Shown piece after piece: positions 12,271 to 28,135 of a stretch of 32,000 nucleotides of DNA. Source of the DNA: Candidatus Saccharimonadota bacterium (GTDB taxonomy: Bacteria > Patescibacteriota > Gracilibacteria > UBA1369 > 2-02-FULL-48-14); contig CP064962.1 in NCBI GenBank assembly GCA_016699145.1, forward strand, positions 30,001 to 62,000. Direction: 5' to 3'. Within the stretch, counting starts at the first letter, position 1, and every line of letters starts with the position of its first letter. The notes under the pieces were generated by a model. The model worked only from the letters and a program-made list of their open reading frames with translations, ran no database searches and was not told the origin of the DNA. The position numbers and the translations under genes are program-made.

Positions 12271-12364
12271 AGAAAAAATAAAGAATACTAGCCCCATGCT
12301 ATACTGAACTCACAAATTCGTAAACCAACTTCGCATAGATTGGGGATTACTCTCCAAAGCTATT

Positions 12365-12384
12365 GGCTGGCCACTCGGGTCTAG
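12365..12384 (+). repeat. mosaic repeat family, copy A, L module plus CTAG core (split by IS5)
   Basis: GGCTGGCCACTCGGGTCTAG is identical to the copies at 20946, 23523 and 24804. Confidence 0.85.
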
Positions 12385-13225
12385 GAGCTGTTAACATAAA
12401 TAGAGGAGTGGTGTAGAGTGAAGTTACTCTAACCCTAACGCCATGTACCAGATGCTAACGGATGAACAGTTCAAACTGATCCAGCCTTATTTTCCAAAGC
12501 CCAGAAAGCCTGAAAAGATTCCACTGAAACGTTGCATGGATGCCATTTGTTATGTACTTAAAACAGGGTGCGCATGGAGACAAATGCCCTACGATTACAG
12601 AGAAAAAGAGAATGACTGGCACACGATTTATACAAGATACAAACGGTGGAGCGAATCTGGACTTTTTGGACAAATGCTTAGAGCACTTGAAGTAGCAGAT
12701 GTACTTCAAGTGCGAATAGCTTTCCTGGACAGTACAACAAATAGAGCGCACCACAGTGCAGCGGGAGCCATGAAAAAGGGGCCACAAGCGTTAGGCCGAA
12801 GTAGAGGTGGGTACACTACAAAAATTCACATGATTGCTGGAGATCCAGATCATGGGATGCACTTTGTTTTAACAGGTGGTGAAGTGAGCGATGTGAAAGT
12901 TGGAAAACAAATTTTGAGAGATTATTCGTTTCCAAAAACAGTAGATCATTTGGCTATGGACAAAGGTTATTCATGCTACAAAGTTCTGGAGCTGTGCAAA
13001 GAAAAAGGCATAACTCCAGTCGTTCCTCCAAAGGCAAAAATGAAATTTCCGTGGGAATACAACAAGAACATTTATGCCTACCGCAACGAGATTGAACGCC
13101 TATTTCACCGAATGAAAAATTACAGAAGAATTTCAACTCGCTATGACAAATTAGACCTGATGTATGCCTCCTTTATCTCCCTCTGCCTTGTGGCACTTTT
13201 ACTCAAAGTCTTATGTTAACAGCTC
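12385..13225 (+). mobile_element. intact IS5-family insertion sequence (841 bp)
   Basis: Perfect 15-bp terminal inverted repeats: GAGCTGTTAACATAA at 12385-12399 and its reverse complement at 13211-13225. A 4-bp CTAG direct repeat flanks the element (12381-12384 and 13226-13229). It holds a single DDE transposase ORF whose stop codon lies inside the right inverted repeat. Confidence 0.9.
12443..13219 (+). CDS. IS5-family DDE transposase
   Basis: LTDEQFKLIQPYFP.....R..........AICYVLKTGCAWRQMP.......W.T.Y.RY.RW...G is the N-terminal IS5 motif. FLDST, MDKGY and RNEIERLFHRMKNYRRISTRYDK match the DDE and YREK region. Confidence 0.9.
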   Translation: MYQMLTDEQFKLIQPYFPKPRKPEKIPLKRCMDAICYVLKTGCAWRQMPYDYREKENDWHTIYTRYKRWSESGLFGQMLRALEVADVLQVRIAFLDSTTNRAHHSAAGAMKKGPQALGRSRGGYTTKIHMIAGDPDHGMHFVLTGGEVSDVKVGKQILRDYSFPKTVDHLAMDKGYSCYKVLELCKEKGITPVVPPKAKMKFPWEYNKNIYAYRNEIERLFHRMKNYRRISTRYDKLDLMYASFISLCLVALLLKVLC

Positions 13226-13323
13226 CTAGTACCCTTTGGCCTGTTTCATTGTAGTGCCTCTTGTCGTGAGACACAATTGTGGTGTTTCAGGCTAAATGAG
13301 ACATTTGAGGCAGTATAAAAAGG
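13226..13323 (+). repeat. mosaic repeat family, copy A, core plus type-1 middle plus R module
   Basis: CTAGTACCCTTTGGCCTGTTTCATTGTAGTGCCTCTTGTCGTGAGACACAATTGTGGTGTTTCAGGCTAAATGAGACATTTGAGGCAGTATAAAAAGG aligns over its full length with 23539-23636 and 24820-24918. Confidence 0.85.
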
Positions 13324-13398
13324 AGATGGATTATTGATGAATCGAAGTGGTGGAATTATTTTTCATGTGCTAAACTGAGCCAACTCTTTGCCCCCTAA

Positions 13399-15965: not shown

Positions 15966-16072
15966 ATAGCCTCTAGTACCATTGTAGACTTTCTTATCCT
16001 AGCGTTTCTTGTCATGAGTCACAACGGCGGCCTTTCAGGATAAATGAGACATTTGAGACAGTGTAAAAAGGG
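15966..16072 (+). repeat. mosaic repeat family, copy B (short core plus divergent middle plus R module)
   Basis: ATAGCCTCTAGTACC...ATTGTAG...TTTCAGGATAAATGAGACATTTGAGACAGTGTAAAAAGGG. The R module is near-identical to copies D and E. The 5' CTGTCTCA arm is missing. Confidence 0.8.
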
Positions 16073-20872: not shown

Positions 20873-20905
20873 ACTTCGTACAACGAAAATTCGAGTATCT
20901 ATCGC

Positions 20906-20967
20906 CATAGCTACTCGGGTCATAGGCTTTCAAACTGCCCGTAATGGCTGGCCACTCGGGTCTAGTA
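20906..20967 (+). repeat. mosaic repeat family, copy G (partial core plus extended L module plus core)
   Basis: CATAGCTACTCGGGTCAT then AGGCTTTCAAACTGCCCGTAATGGCTGGCCACTCGGGTCTAGTA. The extended L module aligns with 23506-23544 and 24783-24825. Confidence 0.8.
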
Positions 20968-21537: not shown

Positions 21538-21683
21538 ACTCGGGTCTAGTAATAGGAGCTATTCCCAGAGACTCCATAAGGAGTAAACCCAGCAAAGTTC
21601 TCCGCATGCACACCCAAGCTGGCATTGCGGGGAGACACAATTGTGGCACTTCGGGCTAAATGGGACGTTTGTCTCGTACAAGG
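21538..21683 (+). repeat. mosaic repeat family, copy C (core plus type-2 middle (M2) plus variant R module)
   Basis: ACTCGGGTCTAGTA, then ATAGGAGCTATTCCCAGAGAC, then M2 (TCCATAAGGAGTAAACCCAGCAAAGTTCTCCGCATGCACACCCAAGCTGGCATTGCGG), then GGAGACACAATTGTGGCACTTCGGGCTAAATGGGACGTTTGTCTCGTACAAGG. Confidence 0.8.
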
Positions 21684-21772
21684 ACTTGCTAATGCTCCTT
21701 CACATCTATTCCATCCAAAGAGAATGTCCTGCTAGAATGCCAACGTTTTTTCTCAAACCCATCCCACGAAAA

Positions 21773-23521
21773 ATGATGGCATTTCTAAACTCAGATAAAC
21801 TTGCCCCCGCTCTAGTTATTCTTGGGTACTTTTTAGTCATAGGTCTCATAGGTGCCTACAGTCACCGCTTTTTAAAAAAAACCGCGGAAGATTATTTTTT
21901 GGGAGGAAGGGCCACCAAAACTTTGGTACTGCTCTTCACCATGGCGGCCACTAATTTTAGCGCCGTCACCATTTATGGATTTTCTGGAACGGCCTACCGC
22001 CAAGGTTATAGTTTTTTCCCCATCATGGCCTTTGGAACGGGTTTCATGGCACTCACCTTTTATTTTATCGGTAGACGCGTATGGGAACTGGGAAAAGAAA
22101 AAGGCTACATGACCCCCCCTCAGCTCATGGGAGATGAGATGAAGAGCCCTTGGCTCCGCCGTTTAGTTTTTTTGGTGATGCTTGTGTTCTCTCTCCCCTA
22201 TATCGCTATTCAGCCCATCGCCGGAGGGTACACCCTAGAAGCGCTCTTGGGCATTCCCTATTTTTTGGGAGCAAGCTTAGTAACGGGTATGATTCTTCTT
22301 TATACATTTTGGGGAGGATATCGCTCCGTTGCGTGGACCGATGTGGCACAAGGCATAATTATGCTCACGGTTATGCTGCTTACCGTGTGGGGCATCGCGG
22401 AAGCAGAGGGGGGGGTTGTGGCAGCCAACACAGCGGTATTTGAAAAAATGCCGGAGCTTTTTTCCCGTCCCGGTGCCGGTGAAGTTTATACTCCGGCGCT
22501 ATGGTTCAGTTACATGATTCTTTGGTTTTTTTGTGACCCTCTATTCCCACAACTGTTCCAACGATTCTTTGTGGCTAAAGAAAAAAAAGCTTTGAACCGA
22601 ACGATGATTTGGTACCCCCTCGTGACTGGCGTTTTCTTTTTACTACCCATGGTGATAGGAGTTTTAGGTCACTTGAGCATCCCCGGCCTAGAGGGCAAAG
22701 AAGCCGATAGAATTTTCCCGATGCTCGCAGAGCTGCATTTTTCTCCGGTCACTGCGGCCTTTATTGTAACAGCAGGTCTCGCAGCACTCATGTCCACTAT
22801 GGATTCACAAATGCTCACCCTCAGCTCCATGTTCACTAAAGATGTTTATGAACCACTCACCGGTCGGCCAGTGAAGGGCAATGGTGTGGGTCGAGCTTTT
22901 AGTGTGCTTTTAGCTGGCCTGGGTTTGCTCATTGCCTACTTCAACCCGAGCTCAATCCTGCAGATAACAACAGAAACCTTCACAGGGCTTGCAGTTCTCT
23001 TCCCAGCCTTAGTGGCCATTTTATATTGGCCACGTACCCATGCTGGGGCTGCTTGCACTTCGATATTGATGGGAGAACTCTTGGTTATTTTGTACCATTT
23101 CAAACTCTTACCAACGGGCGGCTTTTTATCAGTTATTCCCATCTTAGGATGCACCACAGTGATTTTGGTCTTGGGAAGTTACCTTGGGAAGGCAAAACCT
23201 CGTACCCTACCCAAAGTGCCTAAGTCCACTTGGATTTGGGGCATGCTTTTTTACAGGGATTTTTGCTTTATCCTTAGATTTTTGGAATTGGAGTCAGACT
23301 CCTACTTTATGGGGGGGCTTGCCTCTATGGGTGTGGGCTACTTTAGCCTTAAATGGGATCACCGCATTGGCTTTTTGGGTCTTGAGTTCAAGGAAGCAAA
23401 TCAAAGAAAACTAACACCTTTTCTCAGGATTGAAAGTATCTTTATAGGATACTCGTTGACTTTTGGAAAGTTTAAAAATTCCCACATGGATCGTTCAATG
23501 GGAAATACAAACTGCACGTGA
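21773..23521 (+). CDS. sodium:solute symporter (SSS) family transporter with an aberrant 3' end (probable frameshift at 23247-23252)
   Basis: The ATG at 21773 (MMAFLNSDKLAPALVILGYFLVIGLIGAYSHRFLKKTAEDYFLGGR) gives a typical SSS N-terminus. After about aa 492 the sequence stops looking like a membrane protein and runs into the repeat L module. The track start at 21641 lies inside repeat copy C. Confidence 0.75.
   Translation: MMAFLNSDKLAPALVILGYFLVIGLIGAYSHRFLKKTAEDYFLGGRATKTLVLLFTMAATNFSAVTIYGFSGTAYRQGYSFFPIMAFGTGFMALTFYFIGRRVWELGKEKGYMTPPQLMGDEMKSPWLRRLVFLVMLVFSLPYIAIQPIAGGYTLEALLGIPYFLGASLVTGMILLYTFWGGYRSVAWTDVAQGIIMLTVMLLTVWGIAEAEGGVVAANTAVFEKMPELFSRPGAGEVYTPALWFSYMILWFFCDPLFPQLFQRFFVAKEKKALNRTMIWYPLVTGVFFLLPMVIGVLGHLSIPGLEGKEADRIFPMLAELHFSPVTAAFIVTAGLAALMSTMDSQMLTLSSMFTKDVYEPLTGRPVKGNGVGRAFSVLLAGLGLLIAYFNPSSILQITTETFTGLAVLFPALVAILYWPRTHAGAACTSILMGELLVILYHFKLLPTGGFLSVIPILGCTTVILVLGSYLGKAKPRTLPKVPKSTWIWGMLFYRDFCFILRFLELESDSYFMGGLASMGVGYFSLKWDHRIGFLGLEFKEANQRKLTPFLRIESIFIGYSLTFGKFKNSHMDRSMGNTNCT
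23184..23414 (+). CDS. two-helix hydrophobic segment in the +1 frame, probably the true C-terminus of the SSS transporter
   Basis: ..FTGIFALSLDFWNWSQTPTLWGGLPLWVWATLALNGITALAFWVLSSRKQIKEN* is membrane-like. It joins smoothly to ...STWIWGMLF if one T is removed from the T6 run. Confidence 0.4.
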   Translation: MGRQNLVPYPKCLSPLGFGACFFTGIFALSLDFWNWSQTPTLWGGLPLWVWATLALNGITALAFWVLSSRKQIKEN

Positions 23522-23636
23522 TGGCTGGCCACTCGGGTCTAGTACCCTTTTGACCTGTCTCATTGTAGTGTCTCTTGCCGTGAGACACAACTATGGCGTT
23601 TCAGGATAAATGAGACACTTGAGACAGTATAAAAAA
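23506..23636 (+). repeat. mosaic repeat family, copy D (complete type-1 unit)
   Basis: ACAAACTGCACGTGATGGCTGGCCACTCGGGTCTAGTACCCTTTTGACCTGTCTCATTGTAGTGTCTCTTGCCGTGAGACACAACTATGGCGTTTCAGGATAAATGAGACACTTGAGACAGTATAAAAAAG. Confidence 0.85.
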
Positions 23637-23637
23637 G

Positions 23638-24303
23638 CTAGGAAGAACGAGCCGCCCACCGAACTTTGGTAGGTCTAAATCCTTGTCGCTCATAAAAATG
23701 CAGAGCAGACTCGTTCCCCACAGCAGCGCTGGTCCAAAATCGCCCCACTTGCCGTTCAGCAGCCCAGGTTTCAGCAGACTTCAAAAGACTTTTTCCATAG
23801 CCCTTGCCGCGAACTTTTTCGAGCACCATGAGTTCCAAAAGATAAGCCGAGCCATCGTCCTCCAGTTCCACCACGCTGAACCCCAGCAACTCTCCAGCCT
23901 CAAACACCCCATAAGCCGCCGCCGTCCCGTCTTGAAGTTTTTCATCGATCTCTACAAGGTAAGCATCGATTTCAAAAACCGCCGGATCAGCAAAATACTC
24001 AGTATCCAATTGATAGTGAAAAGCTTGCTGTTCAAAAAGCAAATCTTTGAACTGACGAACATCAGACAAAGGAACTATCTCCGGACTGACAACATGGACT
24101 TGAGGAATTTTCTCAATAAAAAGAAGCCGCTTTCGAAAGCCAGCGGGAGCTTCCACCTCTAGCGGTAAGTCGATTTGAATCCATTGTTTGGAAGCTGCAG
24201 GGACAGTAAAATCCGACCCAATTTTTTGTGACAAATCCAAGTACAAATAATCCGAAAAACTCAGATCGGTGACGAAGATGTGAACAGTCTCAAAAGGATG
24301 CAT
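23638..24303 (-). CDS. GNAT-family N-acetyltransferase with an N-terminal domain of unknown function
   Basis: The C-terminal half ...LLELMVLEKVRGKGYGKSLLKSAETWAAE......ESALHFYERQGF contains the GNAT acetyl-CoA motif A (R/Q-x-x-G-x-G/A). Confidence 0.8.
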   Translation of the reverse strand: MHPFETVHIFVTDLSFSDYLYLDLSQKIGSDFTVPAASKQWIQIDLPLEVEAPAGFRKRLLFIEKIPQVHVVSPEIVPLSDVRQFKDLLFEQQAFHYQLDTEYFADPAVFEIDAYLVEIDEKLQDGTAAAYGVFEAGELLGFSVVELEDDGSAYLLELMVLEKVRGKGYGKSLLKSAETWAAERQVGRFWTSAAVGNESALHFYERQGFRPTKVRWAARSS

Positions 24304-24406: not shown

Positions 24407-24619
24407 AGCTTTGGCAGCAAAAAAAACTTCTCCAGGTAGGCCTTCTTCCTGCAAAACACTTCTGAATTCACCAATATTCTCTGCAATTTGCTCAGGGAAA
24501 ACCACATGAAACGGTGTCCCAATAGATCGGGCAAGAGTGGCAAGAGTGGCGCGTTCATTGAGAAGATCAGAAACATTCCTTGATTGCAGTGCTGGGAAAC
24601 GGCCTGGAGAATCACTCAT
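24407..24619 (-). pseudogene. N-terminal fragment (~71 aa) of a type III PLP-dependent (Orn/DAP/Arg-type) decarboxylase
   Basis: ...LARSIGTPFHVVFPEQIAENIGEFRSVL.....GEVFFAAKA matches the family N-terminus (GTP.yV.....i..n...f........yA.KAN). It breaks off before the PLP-lysine context is complete. The remaining track ORF down to 24350 is read-through junk. Confidence 0.6.
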
Positions 24620-24698
24620 ACCAGTTTGATCAAAATGGGGATTATTTTATGTTTTCTTTACAGATAAAACAAGAGGTTATTTCAGTTCGAAGAACAGA

Positions 24699-24918
24699 TT
24701 GACACTGCGGTACTAGCACTTCATAAGGAGTAAAACCAGCGAAGGCTCCGCATGCACGTCCAAACCAGCCTTGCGGATCACAAGGCTTTGTCATGCAACT
24801 GATGGCTGGCCACTCGGGTCTAGTACCCTTGGGACTGTCTCATTTTACCTATTCTTGCCGTGAGACACAATTGTGGCGTTTCAGGCTAAATGAGACATTT
24901 GAGACAGTATAAAAAGGG
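24699..24918 (+). repeat. mosaic repeat family, tandem copies E1 (degenerate L plus M2) and E2 (complete type-1 unit)
   Basis: E1 is TTGACACTGCGGTACTAG, then CACT, then M2 (24721-24776). E2 runs from 24783: AGGCTTTGTCATGCAACTGATGGCTGGCCACTCGGGTCTAGTACCCTTGGGACTGTCTCA...GAGACACAATTGTGGCGTTTCAGGCTAAATGAGACATTTGAGACAGTATAAAAAGGG. Confidence 0.85.
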
Positions 24919-24937
24919 CGACTCAAATTTGTTTTAT

Positions 24938-24980
24938 TTGACAGTTCATAGTATAACCACTAACCTAGGTAGTAGGTTAT
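24938..24980 (+). promoter_or_regulatory. candidate csoR-copA promoter with an overlapping palindromic operator
   Basis: TTGACA (24938-43), 17-nt spacer, TAACCT (24961-66). The imperfect palindrome ATAACCACTAACCTAGGTAGTAGGTTAT (24953-24980) has outer ATAACC/GGTTAT arms and an inner ACCTAGGT. Confidence 0.4.
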
Positions 24981-24996
24981 TTAACAAATCTTATTT

Positions 24997-25272
24997 ATGA
25001 TGGACCCCTACAAAACCAAAGCAGAGCTTGGTACTAAGAAAGCTCTTGGTCAGCTCAAGAAAGTCCTTGAAATGATTGAACAGGAAGCCTACTGCATGGA
25101 TATTTTGCAGCAAGTGAGTGCCGTGGAGGGACTACTCGCCTCCGTCTCTTCCCTCGCCTTAGACAGTCACCTCCACACCTGCGGAAAGCGAGCCTTCTCT
25201 AGTTCAAATGAAAAAGAACAGGAGAAAATCATTCAAGAACTCCTTTTAGCATTTAAGAAATCAAAAAAGTAA
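24997..25272 (+). CDS. csoR: CsoR/RcnR-family metal-sensing transcriptional repressor
   Basis: The small four-helix protein carries the C-H-C ligand pattern (..[10 protein letters not shown]....H.HTC..). It lies directly upstream of copA. Confidence 0.85.
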
Positions 25273-25273
25273 T

Positions 25274-27535
25274 ATGACTCATCAAACCTACAAGATTAAA
25301 GGCATGCACTGCGCCTCCTGCGCTGGAATCATTGAGCGAACCTTTAAGAAAACGGAGGGAGTTAGCTCCGCTGAAGTGAATTATGGCACGGAAACCGCAA
25401 AGGTAGCCTTTGACGAACATAAAGTGCATGCAACCGACCTTTCCAAGAAGATCGAACCCTTGGGCTACTCTTTAGTTCTAGAAGACCATTCTAAACATAC
25501 AGGGATCGGACAATCGAAAGACGACAAACTGAAGGAACTATCCGAACTAAAGAACAAGGTCATTTCAGCCATCCCTCTGGCTGCTTTCAGCATTGTGCTC
25601 ATGACTTGGGAAATCCTTATCCAGTTTGAAGTGCTTCCAGCTATGCCCGAAATTTGGGGGGAATTCTTCCATCATCTTTTGCCCTTGATGGCGACCTACG
25701 TTCTATTTGTGGTCGGTAAACCGTACTTACTGGGCTTCTACCGCTTCCTCCGCTACGGGAAAGCCAATATGGACACTCTGATTGGAATCGGAACTGTGGC
25801 TGCGTACCTCTACAGCTTCATCATAGCCGCCTTCGAGGAACCTCTCTCCGCGTACATCAACACCGAGCATAGCTACTACGACGTGACCATCGTTGTGATT
25901 ACTTTTATTACTCTCGGTAAGTACATGGAGGCACGCTCAAAACTGAAAACGGGAGATGCCATTGAACAACTTCTGAATCTTCAGGCTAAAACAGCCCTTG
26001 TGCTCCGTGACGGCAAAGAAGTCGAGCTGCCCATCGACCAAGTGCTTCATGGGGATCTGATTATTGTGAAGCCTGCAGGTAAAATTCCCGTGGATGGCGA
26101 GCTAACCGAAGGCTCTTCCTACATTGACGAATCGATGGTCACAGGAGAACCCATGCCCGTGCATAAGACCATCGGCGATAAGGTAGTAGGAGGAACCATG
26201 AACACCAGCGGGTCTTTCACTTTCAAGGCAAGCAAAGTGGGAGCTGAAACCATGCTCGCGCACATCATCAAGATGGTGGAAGAGGCTCAAGGCAGCAAAG
26301 CGCCTATTCAAGCCTTAGCAGATAAAATATCCAGCGTCTTTGTACCCGTGGTACTTGTTTTTGCTTTCGTTGCCCTTGCAGCTTGGCTCATTATTGGAAC
26401 GCAGTATCTTGGCTTCTCACAAGCCCTCTCCTACGGGCTGGTTTCTTTTGTAAGCATCCTCGTCATTGCGTGTCCTTGTGCGCTTGGACTGGCAACCCCA
26501 ACCGCTATCATTGTGGGGGTGGGGAAAGGAGCCAAGGAAGGAATTTTAATCAAAGACGCAGCCACCCTTGAAAAGCTCCATAAGGTGAATACGGTGGTGG
26601 TGGACAAAACAGGGACCATCACCAAAGGCAAACCTGAACTCATTTCAATCCTCAACTTTTCCAAGAAAAGCGATAACGACCTCCTCACGATTCTTGCTTC
26701 ACTCGAAAAGAAATCGGAGCACCCCATTGCGCATGCTCTTTTGAGTGCTGCGACCGAGAAACACCTGACTATGCACACGGTCTCGGACTTTGAAGGGATC
26801 AAAGGGAAAGGTCTCAAAGCGTCGATTGACGGCACGGTTTACTACGCAGGAAACGAAAAGCTGATCCACGATCTAAAACTTTCTTTTGACCTCCATGTGA
26901 TTGAGAAAGAAACCGCAGAAGGCAAAACACCCATCGTTCTTGCAAGCAAAGAGGAAGTCCTTGGAATAGCTCTTGTTGCCGATGCTATTAAACCAGAAGC
27001 GAAGAAGGCAGTAGCCCAGCTCCACAAGATGGGACTTGAAGTGGTCATGCTGACGGGGGACAATAAAAACACTGCCAACTTTATAGCCAAGGAAGCGGGA
27101 ATCGACACCGTGGTCGCTGAAGTGCTTCCCGAAGATAAGCTCAACACCATTAAGAAACTCCAAGCAGAAGGAAAAATTGTAGCTATGGCGGGAGACGGTG
27201 TGAATGACGCGCCAGCCCTCGCTCAAGCGGACGTGGGTGTTGCGATGGCAACGGGTACAGACGTAGCGATTGAGTCGGCTGGAATCACCCTCCTTCATGG
27301 AGACATTTCCAAACTGGTGAAAGCCATCCACCTCTCAAAGATGACCATGCGAGGAATCAAGCAAAACCTCTTCTGGGCTTTCTTTTATAACATCATAGGC
27401 ATCCCCTTAGCGGCTGGAGCCTTCTACCCCATCTTCCAGTGGCTTCTAAGCCCCGTGTTCGCAGGACTCGCTATGGCGTTCTCCAGTGTGTCTGTAGTGG
27501 GAAATTCACTACGACTTAAGGCTAAAAAGTTATAA
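25274..27535 (+). CDS. copA: copper-translocating P1B-type ATPase
   Basis: N-terminal HMA domain [19 protein letters not shown] ([12 protein letters not shown]), DKTGTIT, the HP motif (SEHPIA) and [10 protein letters not shown]. Confidence 0.95.
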
Positions 27536-27544
27536 CAACTTCCT

Positions 27545-28135
27545 ATGATAATGAATCGAATTGAGTTCTGGCTCATGAACAACCCCATCCGCGCGCTCAT
27601 TCAAAGATATGAAGCAAGCCGCATGCGCCATATGACCGACTTCAAGGGTGGAGAAGTCCTCGAAATAGGATGCGGGCAAGGAGTGGGGACATTATTGATC
27701 GTCCGACTCTTTAAGCCTCGGAAAATCACTGCCCTTGATCTTGATCCAAAAATGGTTGAAAGAGCGAAGCGAAAAGTTCGGCTTTCACACATTCACTTTG
27801 AACAAGGGGACGCCTCTGCCCTAAGGTTCAAGGAAGAGGAGTTCGATGCAGTATTTGACTTCGGAATACTCCACCACATCCCTAACTGGGAAGATGCGCT
27901 AAAGGAAGTCCATCGGGTACTAAAGCCAAAGGGACTGTTCATTTTGGAAGATTTATCGATAGAAAGTTTCAAACTGCCACTCTTAGGATGGGTTTTAAGG
28001 GTTCTACTGGATCATCCCTATAAGCAGATGTACAAACGAGAAGAGCTTTTGGATTTTACGAAGAAAAATGGCTTTAAGATTGTAGCAAAAAGAATGAATC
28101 CATTTTGGTTCAACCTTATTTTAGAGAAGGAATGA
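27545..28135 (+). CDS. class I SAM-dependent methyltransferase
   Basis: Motif I VLEIGCGQGVG, an acidic loop LDLD, then FDAVFDFGILHHI and LKPKGLFILED. Confidence 0.85.
   Translation: MIMNRIEFWLMNNPIRALIQRYEASRMRHMTDFKGGEVLEIGCGQGVGTLLIVRLFKPRKITALDLDPKMVERAKRKVRLSHIHFEQGDASALRFKEEEFDAVFDFGILHHIPNWEDALKEVHRVLKPKGLFILEDLSIESFKLPLLGWVLRVLLDHPYKQMYKREELLDFTKKNGFKIVAKRMNPFWFNLILEKE

Follow-up and report, generated by a model that had tools for sequence, protein, structure and literature searches.

What is a short intergenic module, rich in copies of one heptamer, doing at several places in one region of a candidate-phylum genome? The question is raised by a stretch of 32,000 nucleotides, hereafter the window, from a Candidatus Saccharimonadota bacterium (GTDB lineage Bacteria; Patescibacteriota; Gracilibacteria; assembly GCA_016699145.1, contig CP064962.1, positions 30,001 to 62,000 of the forward strand). 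In one copy of this module, copy D of what is here called R, a sequence-only reading had described five TGAGACA-type heptamers and proposed that they form a set of nested or alternative hairpins, as in transposon ends, folded single-strand recombination sites or a structured RNA. Here we describe R as one part of a composite repeat, M-L-R, which, judging from comparison of sequences, marks the borders of horizontally exchanged gene blocks in a variable region of Peribacteria genomes. The main point of the locus is this candidate cassette-border system in a lineage of the candidate phyla radiation, not the heptamer hairpins.

R (~95 nt) is one module of the repeat, whose order is (M1 or M2)-L-R. 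The 82 nt of copy D noted at first are part of a ~120-nt repeat with a sharp 3' end at GTATAAAAAGG; in this copy the whole repeat, L-R, occupies 23522-23637. The 3' 65 nt of R are almost invariant across genomes. The following copies and parts were found in the window (loci in other genomes are designated L001, L004 and so on, in distinction from the module L):

23522..23547, plus strand: L module of copy D, sequence TGGCTGGCCACTCGGGTCTAGTACCC
23546..23637, plus strand: R module of copy D, with five heptamers, ending sharply at GTATAAAAA(A/G)G
24695..24800, plus strand: M1 module of copy E, the same module that stands directly 3' of tRNA-Gln genes in L001, L009 and L157
24803..24917, plus strand: L-R of copy E (E2), with a perfect outer stem, the inner hairpin absent (haplotype 2) and TTGTGT-17-TAAAAT on the minus strand
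12364..12384, plus strand: L part of copy A, interrupted by an insertion sequence at CTAG
13226..13323, plus strand: R part of copy A, outer stem with two G.T wobbles
15972..16071, plus strand: copy B, R only, 5' half degenerate, starting at TCTAGTACC
20886..20967, plus strand: copy F, an M2 module (20886-20944) and an L without R (20945-20967)
21539..21680, plus strand: copy C ('type 2'), in which a fusion of M1 (its 5' part) with R (its 3' half) follows an L fragment CTCGGGTCTAGTA
12385..13225, plus strand: IS5-family insertion sequence in copy A, 841 bp, inverted repeats GAGCTGTTAACA/TGTTAACAGCTC, 4-bp duplication CTAG

In copy E the three modules M1-L-R are contiguous, and on its sequence this arrangement may be taken for an attP-like junction. 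Copy C, which had been set apart as a distinct type-2 design, is instead a deletion derivative of an M1-L-R junction of this kind: it corresponds to copy E minus ~100 nt, with a 7-nt microhomology CTTGC(G/C)G (CTTGCGG/CTTGCCG) at the fusion point (window 21593-21660 compared with 24740-24880). The last heptamer of copy C is replaced by its complement (TTGTCTCG instead of TTGAGACAG), possibly a tiny inversion. L also occurs alone, in copy F and in many copies of related loci, and truncated variants consist of an L with 0-15 nt of R. Inserts within copies of the repeat comprise the insertion sequence in copy A and one further insert. The IS5-family element, with its transposase open reading frame (ORF) at 12443-13219 (domains DUF4096 and DDE_Tnp_1), is not a component of the repeat proper.

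The surroundings of the copies indicate that L-R separates independently assorting blocks. Where DUF1428 lies to the left of L-R, the right sides differ among the window, L048 and L165; where csoR-copA lies to the right, the left sides differ among the window, L012 and L015, and csoR-copA is found without L-R in L144. A block of CDF and BacA genes is present in both orientations. The cargo in the window and related loci (CsoR-CopA, CDF, ZIP/Fur, MntP, TspO, toxin-antitoxin, DUF4917/SIR2-like, DUF3800 and DUF6119 genes) is typical of islands, namely metal homeostasis, toxin-antitoxin and defence-like functions. At the borders of the blocks, M adjoins a tRNA gene at one end and L-R follows flanking sequence at the other, with M-L-R between adjacent blocks (copies D and E; L004, L008, L010). 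On sequence grounds, this is how attL, attR and attP-like junctions would be arranged if elements had accreted at a tRNA gene.

The tRNA gene in question is that for tRNA-Gln. M1 begins right after the CCA end of an opposite-strand tRNA-Gln gene in L001, L009 and L157, and M2 directly follows a tRNA-Gln(ctg) gene in L004; in these relatives L-R lies several kilobases from the tRNA gene, at the far end of the accessory block. Empty and occupied states of the tRNA-Gln site 3' of an M23 peptidase gene can be compared: in L158 and L159 the neighbourhood is the same but devoid of any module, in L160 there is a small block, and L157, L001 and L009 have M1 and a block. The block of L160 is a single gene between tRNA-Gln and an L, flanked by a repeat of the type CCAGCCAA(C)ACTTC (~13 nt, one indel), and in L001 a 14-bp direct repeat CCAGCCAAGAGTTG is found at the tRNA end and beside the distal L. 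The reverse complement of L, GGGTACTAGACCCGAGTGGCCAGCCA, consists of a small hairpin, a 7-nt variable stretch and then G-CCA, a layout like that of the T-arm, acceptor and CCA end of tRNA-Gln; it terminates, as the tRNA-Gln 3' end does, in CCAGCCA, which is always present. A search for a tRNA or tmRNA gene at L-R with ARAGORN gave none. Pairing of the variable part of L with the start of R in an acceptor-like helix was also considered and rejected, since duplex energies within and between copies were nearly the same (-7.6 vs -8.0 on the plus strand, -7.7 vs -7.8 on the minus strand).

Among known systems the repeat would appear, by analogy, to be most like the attachment-site (att) junctions formed by integrative elements that target tRNA genes and by derivatives of these without an integrase, the cis-mobilizable elements (CIMEs) that accrete in arrays beside a tRNA gene. 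Common to both are a block anchored at a tRNA 3' end with a short tRNA-end repeat at its far border, full arm-core-arm junctions between tandem units, one arm with several short direct and inverted repeats, and accessory cargo. The repeat differs in that no integrase was found near it, that the core matches the tRNA just in CCAGCCA (with up to 7 more nucleotides in one case), and that it shows many armless minimal L sites, genome-specific L variants and units down to one short ORF. Our favoured reading, which we hold tentatively and at a little below even confidence, is that cassettes without an integrase meet at att-like junctions, of which R forms one arm; its heptamers would bind proteins, and it would carry a promoter directed outwards. 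L would be the recombination core, given its resemblance to the tRNA 3' end in CCAGCCA and in layout, and R would be an arm with sequence-specific protein sites, made up of three invariant direct TGAGACA heptamers, equally invariant linkers and weaker inverted copies. These sites may serve accessory proteins of recombination or a repressor. Of the mobile or recombinational nature first suggested for the module, the general idea is supported by its location at the joints of reassorting blocks and by the partner modules beside tRNA-Gln, whereas the specific families that had been named find little support.

One of these families is that of the integron attC sites. Neither the RYYYAAC/GTTRRRY boxes nor an imperfect palindrome of the attC type were seen by eye at TGGCTGGCC..., at ...GTATAAAAAGG or at the L boundaries, no pattern search having been made for them, and neither IntI nor another Phage_integrase domain was found by Pfam among the larger window ORFs and related loci; the recombinase search covered all larger ORFs of the window and many ORFs of related loci, within a few kilobases of each copy. 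Arrays of L alone occur, with one L per 400-630 bp and a single R at one end (L018, L048 600-2300, L092, L165 150-1760). Each L in them follows a short ORF, and the next ORF starts 0-27 nt after CCAGCCA, so that by analogy the layout may be called integron-like without an integrase. The cassettes are co-oriented, mostly promoterless and repeat-bounded in L018, L048, L165 and part of L092, and of mixed orientation in L010, L011, L016 and the window. Chromosomal integron arrays (homogeneous attC sites such as the Vibrio cholerae repeats, with the promoter Pc and an attI that has additional direct repeats for integrase binding) likewise contain short, often promoterless ORFs each bounded by the same repeat, as in L018, L048, L092 and L165, as well as toxin-antitoxin cassettes, and R resembles their platform in standing at the end of an array with several short repeats and a promoter-like site directed into the array. 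They differ from the system described here, which has no IntI, an L of only 26-28 nt that is hardly palindromic, mixed gene orientation, and R many times per genome. A bolder proposal, which we consider unlikely, is that Peribacteria carry an integron-like cassette system of a new type, in which cassettes would recombine at L (26-28 nt, a mimic of the 3' end of tRNA-Gln), the tRNA-Gln 3' end would serve for primary docking, and R would be a platform with a promoter into promoterless cassettes and TGAGACA sites for a recombinase or regulator encoded elsewhere in the 1.3-Mb genomes.

The transposon families fared no better. Terminal inverted repeats, expected if R were a transposon end, were not found, and a miniature inverted-repeat transposable element was rejected: the 5' end TGGCTGGCCACTCGGG is unrelated to the reverse complement of the 3' end, CCCTTTTTATACTGTC, and there is no constant flanking duplication. 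With the ends of IS200/IS605 elements and their gene-less derivatives, the palindrome-associated transposable elements, the repeat shares subterminal hairpins and a strand bias; it likewise lacks terminal inverted repeats and breaks off sharply on its 3' side, where unrelated sequence begins. In contrast to them, the hairpins of its diverged copies are of opposite polarity, no conserved target tetra- or pentanucleotide was seen and the stems do not covary. No ORF for a Y1 HUH transposase, TnpA(Y1), or for TnpB was present in the inspected loci.

The repeat was found in 18 loci by a pattern scan with one genome per species, mostly in metagenome-assembled genomes of Candidatus Peribacteria/Peregrinibacteria, and three of the loci lie on one complete 1.3-Mb chromosome of this group. 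Peregrinibacteria proteins match those of the window at up to 100% identity. The repeat is also carried by a few short contigs that were binned as Gammaproteobacteria or Bdellovibrionales; they share cargo genes with the Peribacteria loci and are probably misbinned. A metagenome scan with a 17-nt degenerate pattern returned mostly chance matches, and among the matches listed the new ones were L048, L092 and a few diverged copies. The diverged copies (L014, L017, L043, L123, L140, L109) retain a small GGGTCTGGAACCC-type hairpin and, ~30 nt past it, the arrangement TGTCTCA - 13 nt (CyTTCrGGCTAAA) - TGAGACA - WW - TGAGACA - 13 nt (GTATAAAAAGGGr) - TGTCTyA. A phage or plasmid origin received no support, as M1-L-R found no counterpart by blastn among 50,697 phage and 72,556 plasmid records; pattern scans of IMG/VR gave chance matches only, plus one compact look-alike on a 69-kb contig. 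The latter (L164, 4300-4345) reads ATGAGAC-AGGTCTA-GTCTCAT-TA-TGAGACAGTATAAAAAGG and is intergenic in a putative phage, with neighbours without known function. No published description of the repeat was found in the searchable literature.

Several features of this distribution bear on a second explanation, namely that a selfish, non-autonomous intergenic repeat with M, L and R as its modules spread in Peribacteria and now provides mainly homology for RecA-dependent exchange of blocks, for instance after natural transformation, the heptamers being functionless relics of end-binding sites. The enterobacterial repetitive intergenic consensus (ERIC, or intergenic repeat unit, IRU), the pneumococcal BOX A-B-C elements and the bacterial interspersed mosaic elements (BIMEs) offer models for it, being likewise ~120 nt long, intergenic, highly conserved between genomes and built as modular imperfect palindromes, with truncated and insertion-bearing variants and no encoded transposase. 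The variants that are truncated or carry internal deletions (copies B, C and F; L with 0-15 nt of R), the inserts inside copies, the reassortment of flanks on both sides, the lack of an associated recombinase in the inspected loci and the homogenisation of L variants within genomes, which are uniform in L016 and in L018, all agree with it. Unlike ERIC, BOX and BIME elements, however, the repeat stands at breakpoints of reassorting blocks and beside tRNA-Gln, is only partly palindromic and has one half far more conserved than the other. Several R haplotypes coexist in the window, and the nearest copies to each are found in other genomes. The 3' 65 nt of R are ~97% identical while the 5' half divides into three haplotypes and neighbouring genes fall to 60-74% identity, which points to sequence-specific constraint. 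Moreover, key promoter positions are retained inside the variable part, and the tRNA-Gln link with its flanking direct repeats suggests site-specific events. We regard a purely selfish repeat as a doubtful alternative to the att-like arm.

If R is under constraint, is it the hairpins that are constrained? In direct reading of the window all five TGAGACA-type heptamers of copy D were confirmed: two inverted, heptamer 1 (CTGTCTCA, 23555-62) and heptamer 2 (GTGTCTC, 23568-74), and three direct, heptamer 3 (TGAGACAC, 23581-88), heptamer 4 (TGAGACA, 23611-17) and heptamer 5 (TGAGACAG, 23620-27). The motif itself is enriched, with 13 occurrences of TGAGACA on both strands of the window against 4.0 +/- 2.0 in shuffles (none of 100 shuffles reached 13), and 12 of the 13 fall within the four R copies. 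The pairings first described also hold: GTGTCTC-ttgccgt-GAGACAC is a perfect 7-bp inverted repeat (the inner hairpin), and CTGTCTCA with TGAGACAG forms a perfect 8-bp one (the outer stem), perfect in copy E2 as well (24835-42 with 24900-07), while the arms of copy A, CTGTTTCA (13241-48) and TGAGGCAG (13306-13), give two G.T wobbles on the plus strand. The CACAATTGTG palindrome was seen in copies A, C and E2. For copy C the described strings are present at coordinates shifted by one base, GAGACA at 21632-37 and TTTGTCTCG at 21668-76.

The ATG within heptamer 4 begins a short ORF (MRHLRQYKKG...) in R, with a stop just past the element in most copies (window 23610-23642, 24890-24990, 13296-13337). 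The most variable column (T/C) of the conserved half of R is the third position of its His codon; substitutions are too few for a coding test.

Conservation and covariation were examined in an alignment of 21 copies, which are closely related and hence give low power; alignment columns 80-101 are fixed by the search pattern and uninformative on conservation. The explanation at stake is that R acts as a folded plus strand, either as a structured RNA (a leader or small RNA) or, comparable to the bottom strands of integron attC sites, the CTX phage attP(+) or IS200/IS605 ends, as a recombination substrate of single-stranded DNA, with the heptamers as stems. RNAalifold proposed two helices, the outer stem, in which heptamer 1 pairs with heptamer 5, and another of GCC-G-UGAGA with UUUCA-GGC; they are paired in 95.8% and 97.6% of cells, respectively. 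Pairing is thus mostly kept in the collected copies, while covariation is close to zero: the covariation term was +0.12, a compensatory change was found in one of 22 pairs, and in a shuffle control 96.6% of cells were paired against 95.9% expected, with the covariation score reached by 42 of 500 shuffles. The inner hairpin (heptamer 2 with 3) fares worse, with 70.7% of cells paired, its outer positions paired in just 6-8 of 21 copies and no compensatory changes. Its 5' arm exists in three versions (GTGTCTC, CCTATTC, CCGTTTC) and its 3' arm never varies, which is why two thirds of the copies lack it. In three of the diverged copies, L140, L123 and L109, there is an uncompensated A.G mismatch in the 5' arm.

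Folding energy gives a plus-strand fold some support, with z-scores against shuffles from -2.5 to -4.4. For copy D they were -3.0 (plus) and -4.2 (minus) as RNA and -2.6 and -2.7 as DNA, and for copy E -2.5 and -2.8 as RNA; since both strands fold better than shuffles, energy singles out no strand. Among the cells of paired columns, 35 are G.U, one invariant pair accounting for 21 of these; A.C cells are absent and 12 cells are mismatched, so that all pairable non-Watson-Crick cells are G.U on the plus strand. Transitions in the direction compatible with plus-strand pairing stand to the others as 5:1 in paired columns, compared with 11:19 in unpaired ones. The idea that pairing is kept on the plus strand only therefore survives as a tendency, resting on about 5 substitution events versus 1 (Fisher p = 0.07 against unpaired columns, not significant). 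The diverged relatives, which keep TGTCTCA-13 nt-TGAGACA, agree with such a fold as well. Against it, beyond the near-zero covariation, no conserved promoter or terminator was seen on the plus strand, no HUH, TnpB or IntI gene is nearby, and Rfam recognised nothing: a search of the window with Rfam 15 at gathering scores gave tRNA-Leu only, and one of 24600-25000 on both strands with E-values up to 10 gave no match. With no family match and base pairs without compensatory support in the 21 copies, the structured RNA found no confirmation, and a functional plus-strand fold in either form seems to us improbable.

Column entropies point in the same direction. Heptamers 3-5 had values of 0.04-0.10, whereas heptamer 1 had 0.32 and heptamer 2 had 0.60; the linkers TTGCCG and TATAAAAAGG came to 0.17. 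The linkers are as conserved as heptamers 3-5, and heptamers 1 and 2 are less so; as a set, the heptamers come close to being no more conserved than the sequence between them. The conserved unit is therefore a block of ~65 nt and not the heptamers per se. A conserved set of nested or alternative hairpins, as the sequence-only reading had it, is not borne out, given the lack of significant covariation, the shuffles that were not convincingly exceeded and an inner hairpin specific to one haplotype. The hairpins of R are mostly a side effect of repeated short sites and not a conserved RNA fold; on the att-like reading they would be by-products of inverted copies of one binding motif and not selected themselves.

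The variable half of R contains another candidate signal, given here for copy D:

23562..23590, minus strand: promoter-like site, -35 TTGTGT at 23590-23585, 17-nt spacer, -10 TACAAT at 23567-23562

All but one of the 21 copies have, on the minus strand, TTGTGT, a spacer of 17 (once 18) nt and TA(C/A/G)(A/G)AT. Invariant within the -10 element are its TA and its last T (alignment columns 46, 45 and 41), inside a stretch that otherwise exists in three haplotypes. Among the heptamers, the third overlaps the -35 element and the spacer, the first falls on the predicted start, and the fourth and fifth are situated upstream. The site is directed into L, and the first ORF past L is co-oriented with it in 13 of 17 cases by a tally from ORF maps (11 of 15 in an earlier count, p = 0.06). 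In the att-like arm this sigma-70-like promoter would read through L into the neighbouring block, or into the M trailer and its terminator. A role of R as promoter of the gene to its right was rejected: the plus strand has no usable -35, csoR has its own promoter ~30 nt past R and exists without R in L144, and the right-hand genes point either way (~11 vs 10). The promoter/operator of csoR-copA is itself conserved (TTGAC..N17..TATAACCACTAACCTAGGTAGTAGGTTAT; window 24935-24996 and L144 9930-10000) and is kept both in the island context of the window and in the core context of L144, beside a PNPase gene.

The same data allow a further explanation, in which a tRNA gene has given rise to a small transcription unit on the minus strand, R-L-M. 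The promoter and upstream control region would lie in R, whose heptamers would act as operator or activator sites, L and M would give a ~100-nt transcript that starts with a mimic of a tRNA 3' half and ends at the M terminator, and the position at block borders would be secondary. The minus strand of M2 carries a hairpin CGAGUAGCUAUGGCGAUAGAUACUCG followed by AAUUUUCG, which is terminator-like (window 20886-20944, L004 7420-7482, L165 ~340-420), and a terminator-like site was also called on the minus strand within M1 at 24751-24739. In L165 the order is R, L, M2, and there the promoter-like site is followed after ~100 nt by the terminator-like hairpin and a U-run; the series TTGTGT-17-TAnnAT, L, M2, hairpin and U-run is counted in its favour in L165 and in copy F of the window. 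In addition, the same M modules trail real tRNA-Gln genes, M2 doing so in L004. Most L-R copies, however, have no M following, the putative RNAs fold no better than shuffles (z -0.2 and -1.6), M1 was rejected as a structured RNA since it shows no covariation in 6 copies, L has no 5' acceptor partner (L and the start of R do not covary), and neither ARAGORN nor Rfam gave a match. We rate this transcription unit as the least probable of the explanations considered, below the selfish repeat and the plus-strand fold.

The att-like arm with a promoter has itself to be weighed against a number of contrary observations. Outside the terminal CCAGCCA, L matches tRNA-Gln at 8 of 21 positions, which is not significant (p = 0.13), and the window contains no tRNA-Gln, its sole tRNA gene being that for tRNA-Leu at 775-863. 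Many L copies have no R, so a junction needs no R. L variants are genome-specific, in contrast to the R haplotypes; a simple attP x attB scheme would not lead one to expect this. With only 7-8 of 12 consensus positions, a level common by chance, the promoter is a weak match that a strict scan did not call, and in the diverged copies the best promoter-like sites are at other positions. The excess of G.U over A.C in the stems of R hints at a plus-strand constraint that an att arm does not explain. Finally, Pfam searches of ~65 ORFs and motif scans (including one for H.LRH that found nothing) turned up no integrase, resolvase or transposase, either in the window or among ~30 related loci, apart from the unrelated IS5-type element, and the only contig with integrases and homologous cargo, that of L154-L156, is without L or R. 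With no recombinase encoded nearby, movement of the blocks would depend on a hypothetical recombinase supplied in trans or on homologous exchange between repeats.

That contig, of 18.6 kb and found in three samples, seems to wrap round. Its genes include those for a tyrosine integrase, for a large serine recombinase and for a type III restriction-modification pair, together with CDF-BacA-CsoR-CopA-methyltransferase genes at 74% nucleotide identity to window 24956-28119. Its homologous cargo implies that the copper and zinc genes of the window travel on a classical mobile element too. In the window, the sodium:solute symporter ORF at 21641-23521 ends at the first base of L in copy D, and its Pfam domain covers only residues 42-435 of 583; the extension is probably a read-through of non-coding sequence or a damaged 3' end.

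The exchange of accessory genes in bacteria of the candidate phyla radiation, with their tiny genomes, few recognisable mobile elements and no cultures, is largely obscure. The repeat described here marks a variable region beside tRNA-Gln in which metal-homeostasis, toxin-antitoxin and defence-like genes are swapped among Peribacteria with no integrase seen. Even if it is merely a selfish repeat, it would still be a useful marker of recombination breakpoints. If it is a true recombination site with a promoter module of its own, it would constitute a lineage-specific cassette system, and L and R would provide a sequence tag for hot spots of accessory genes in metagenomes.

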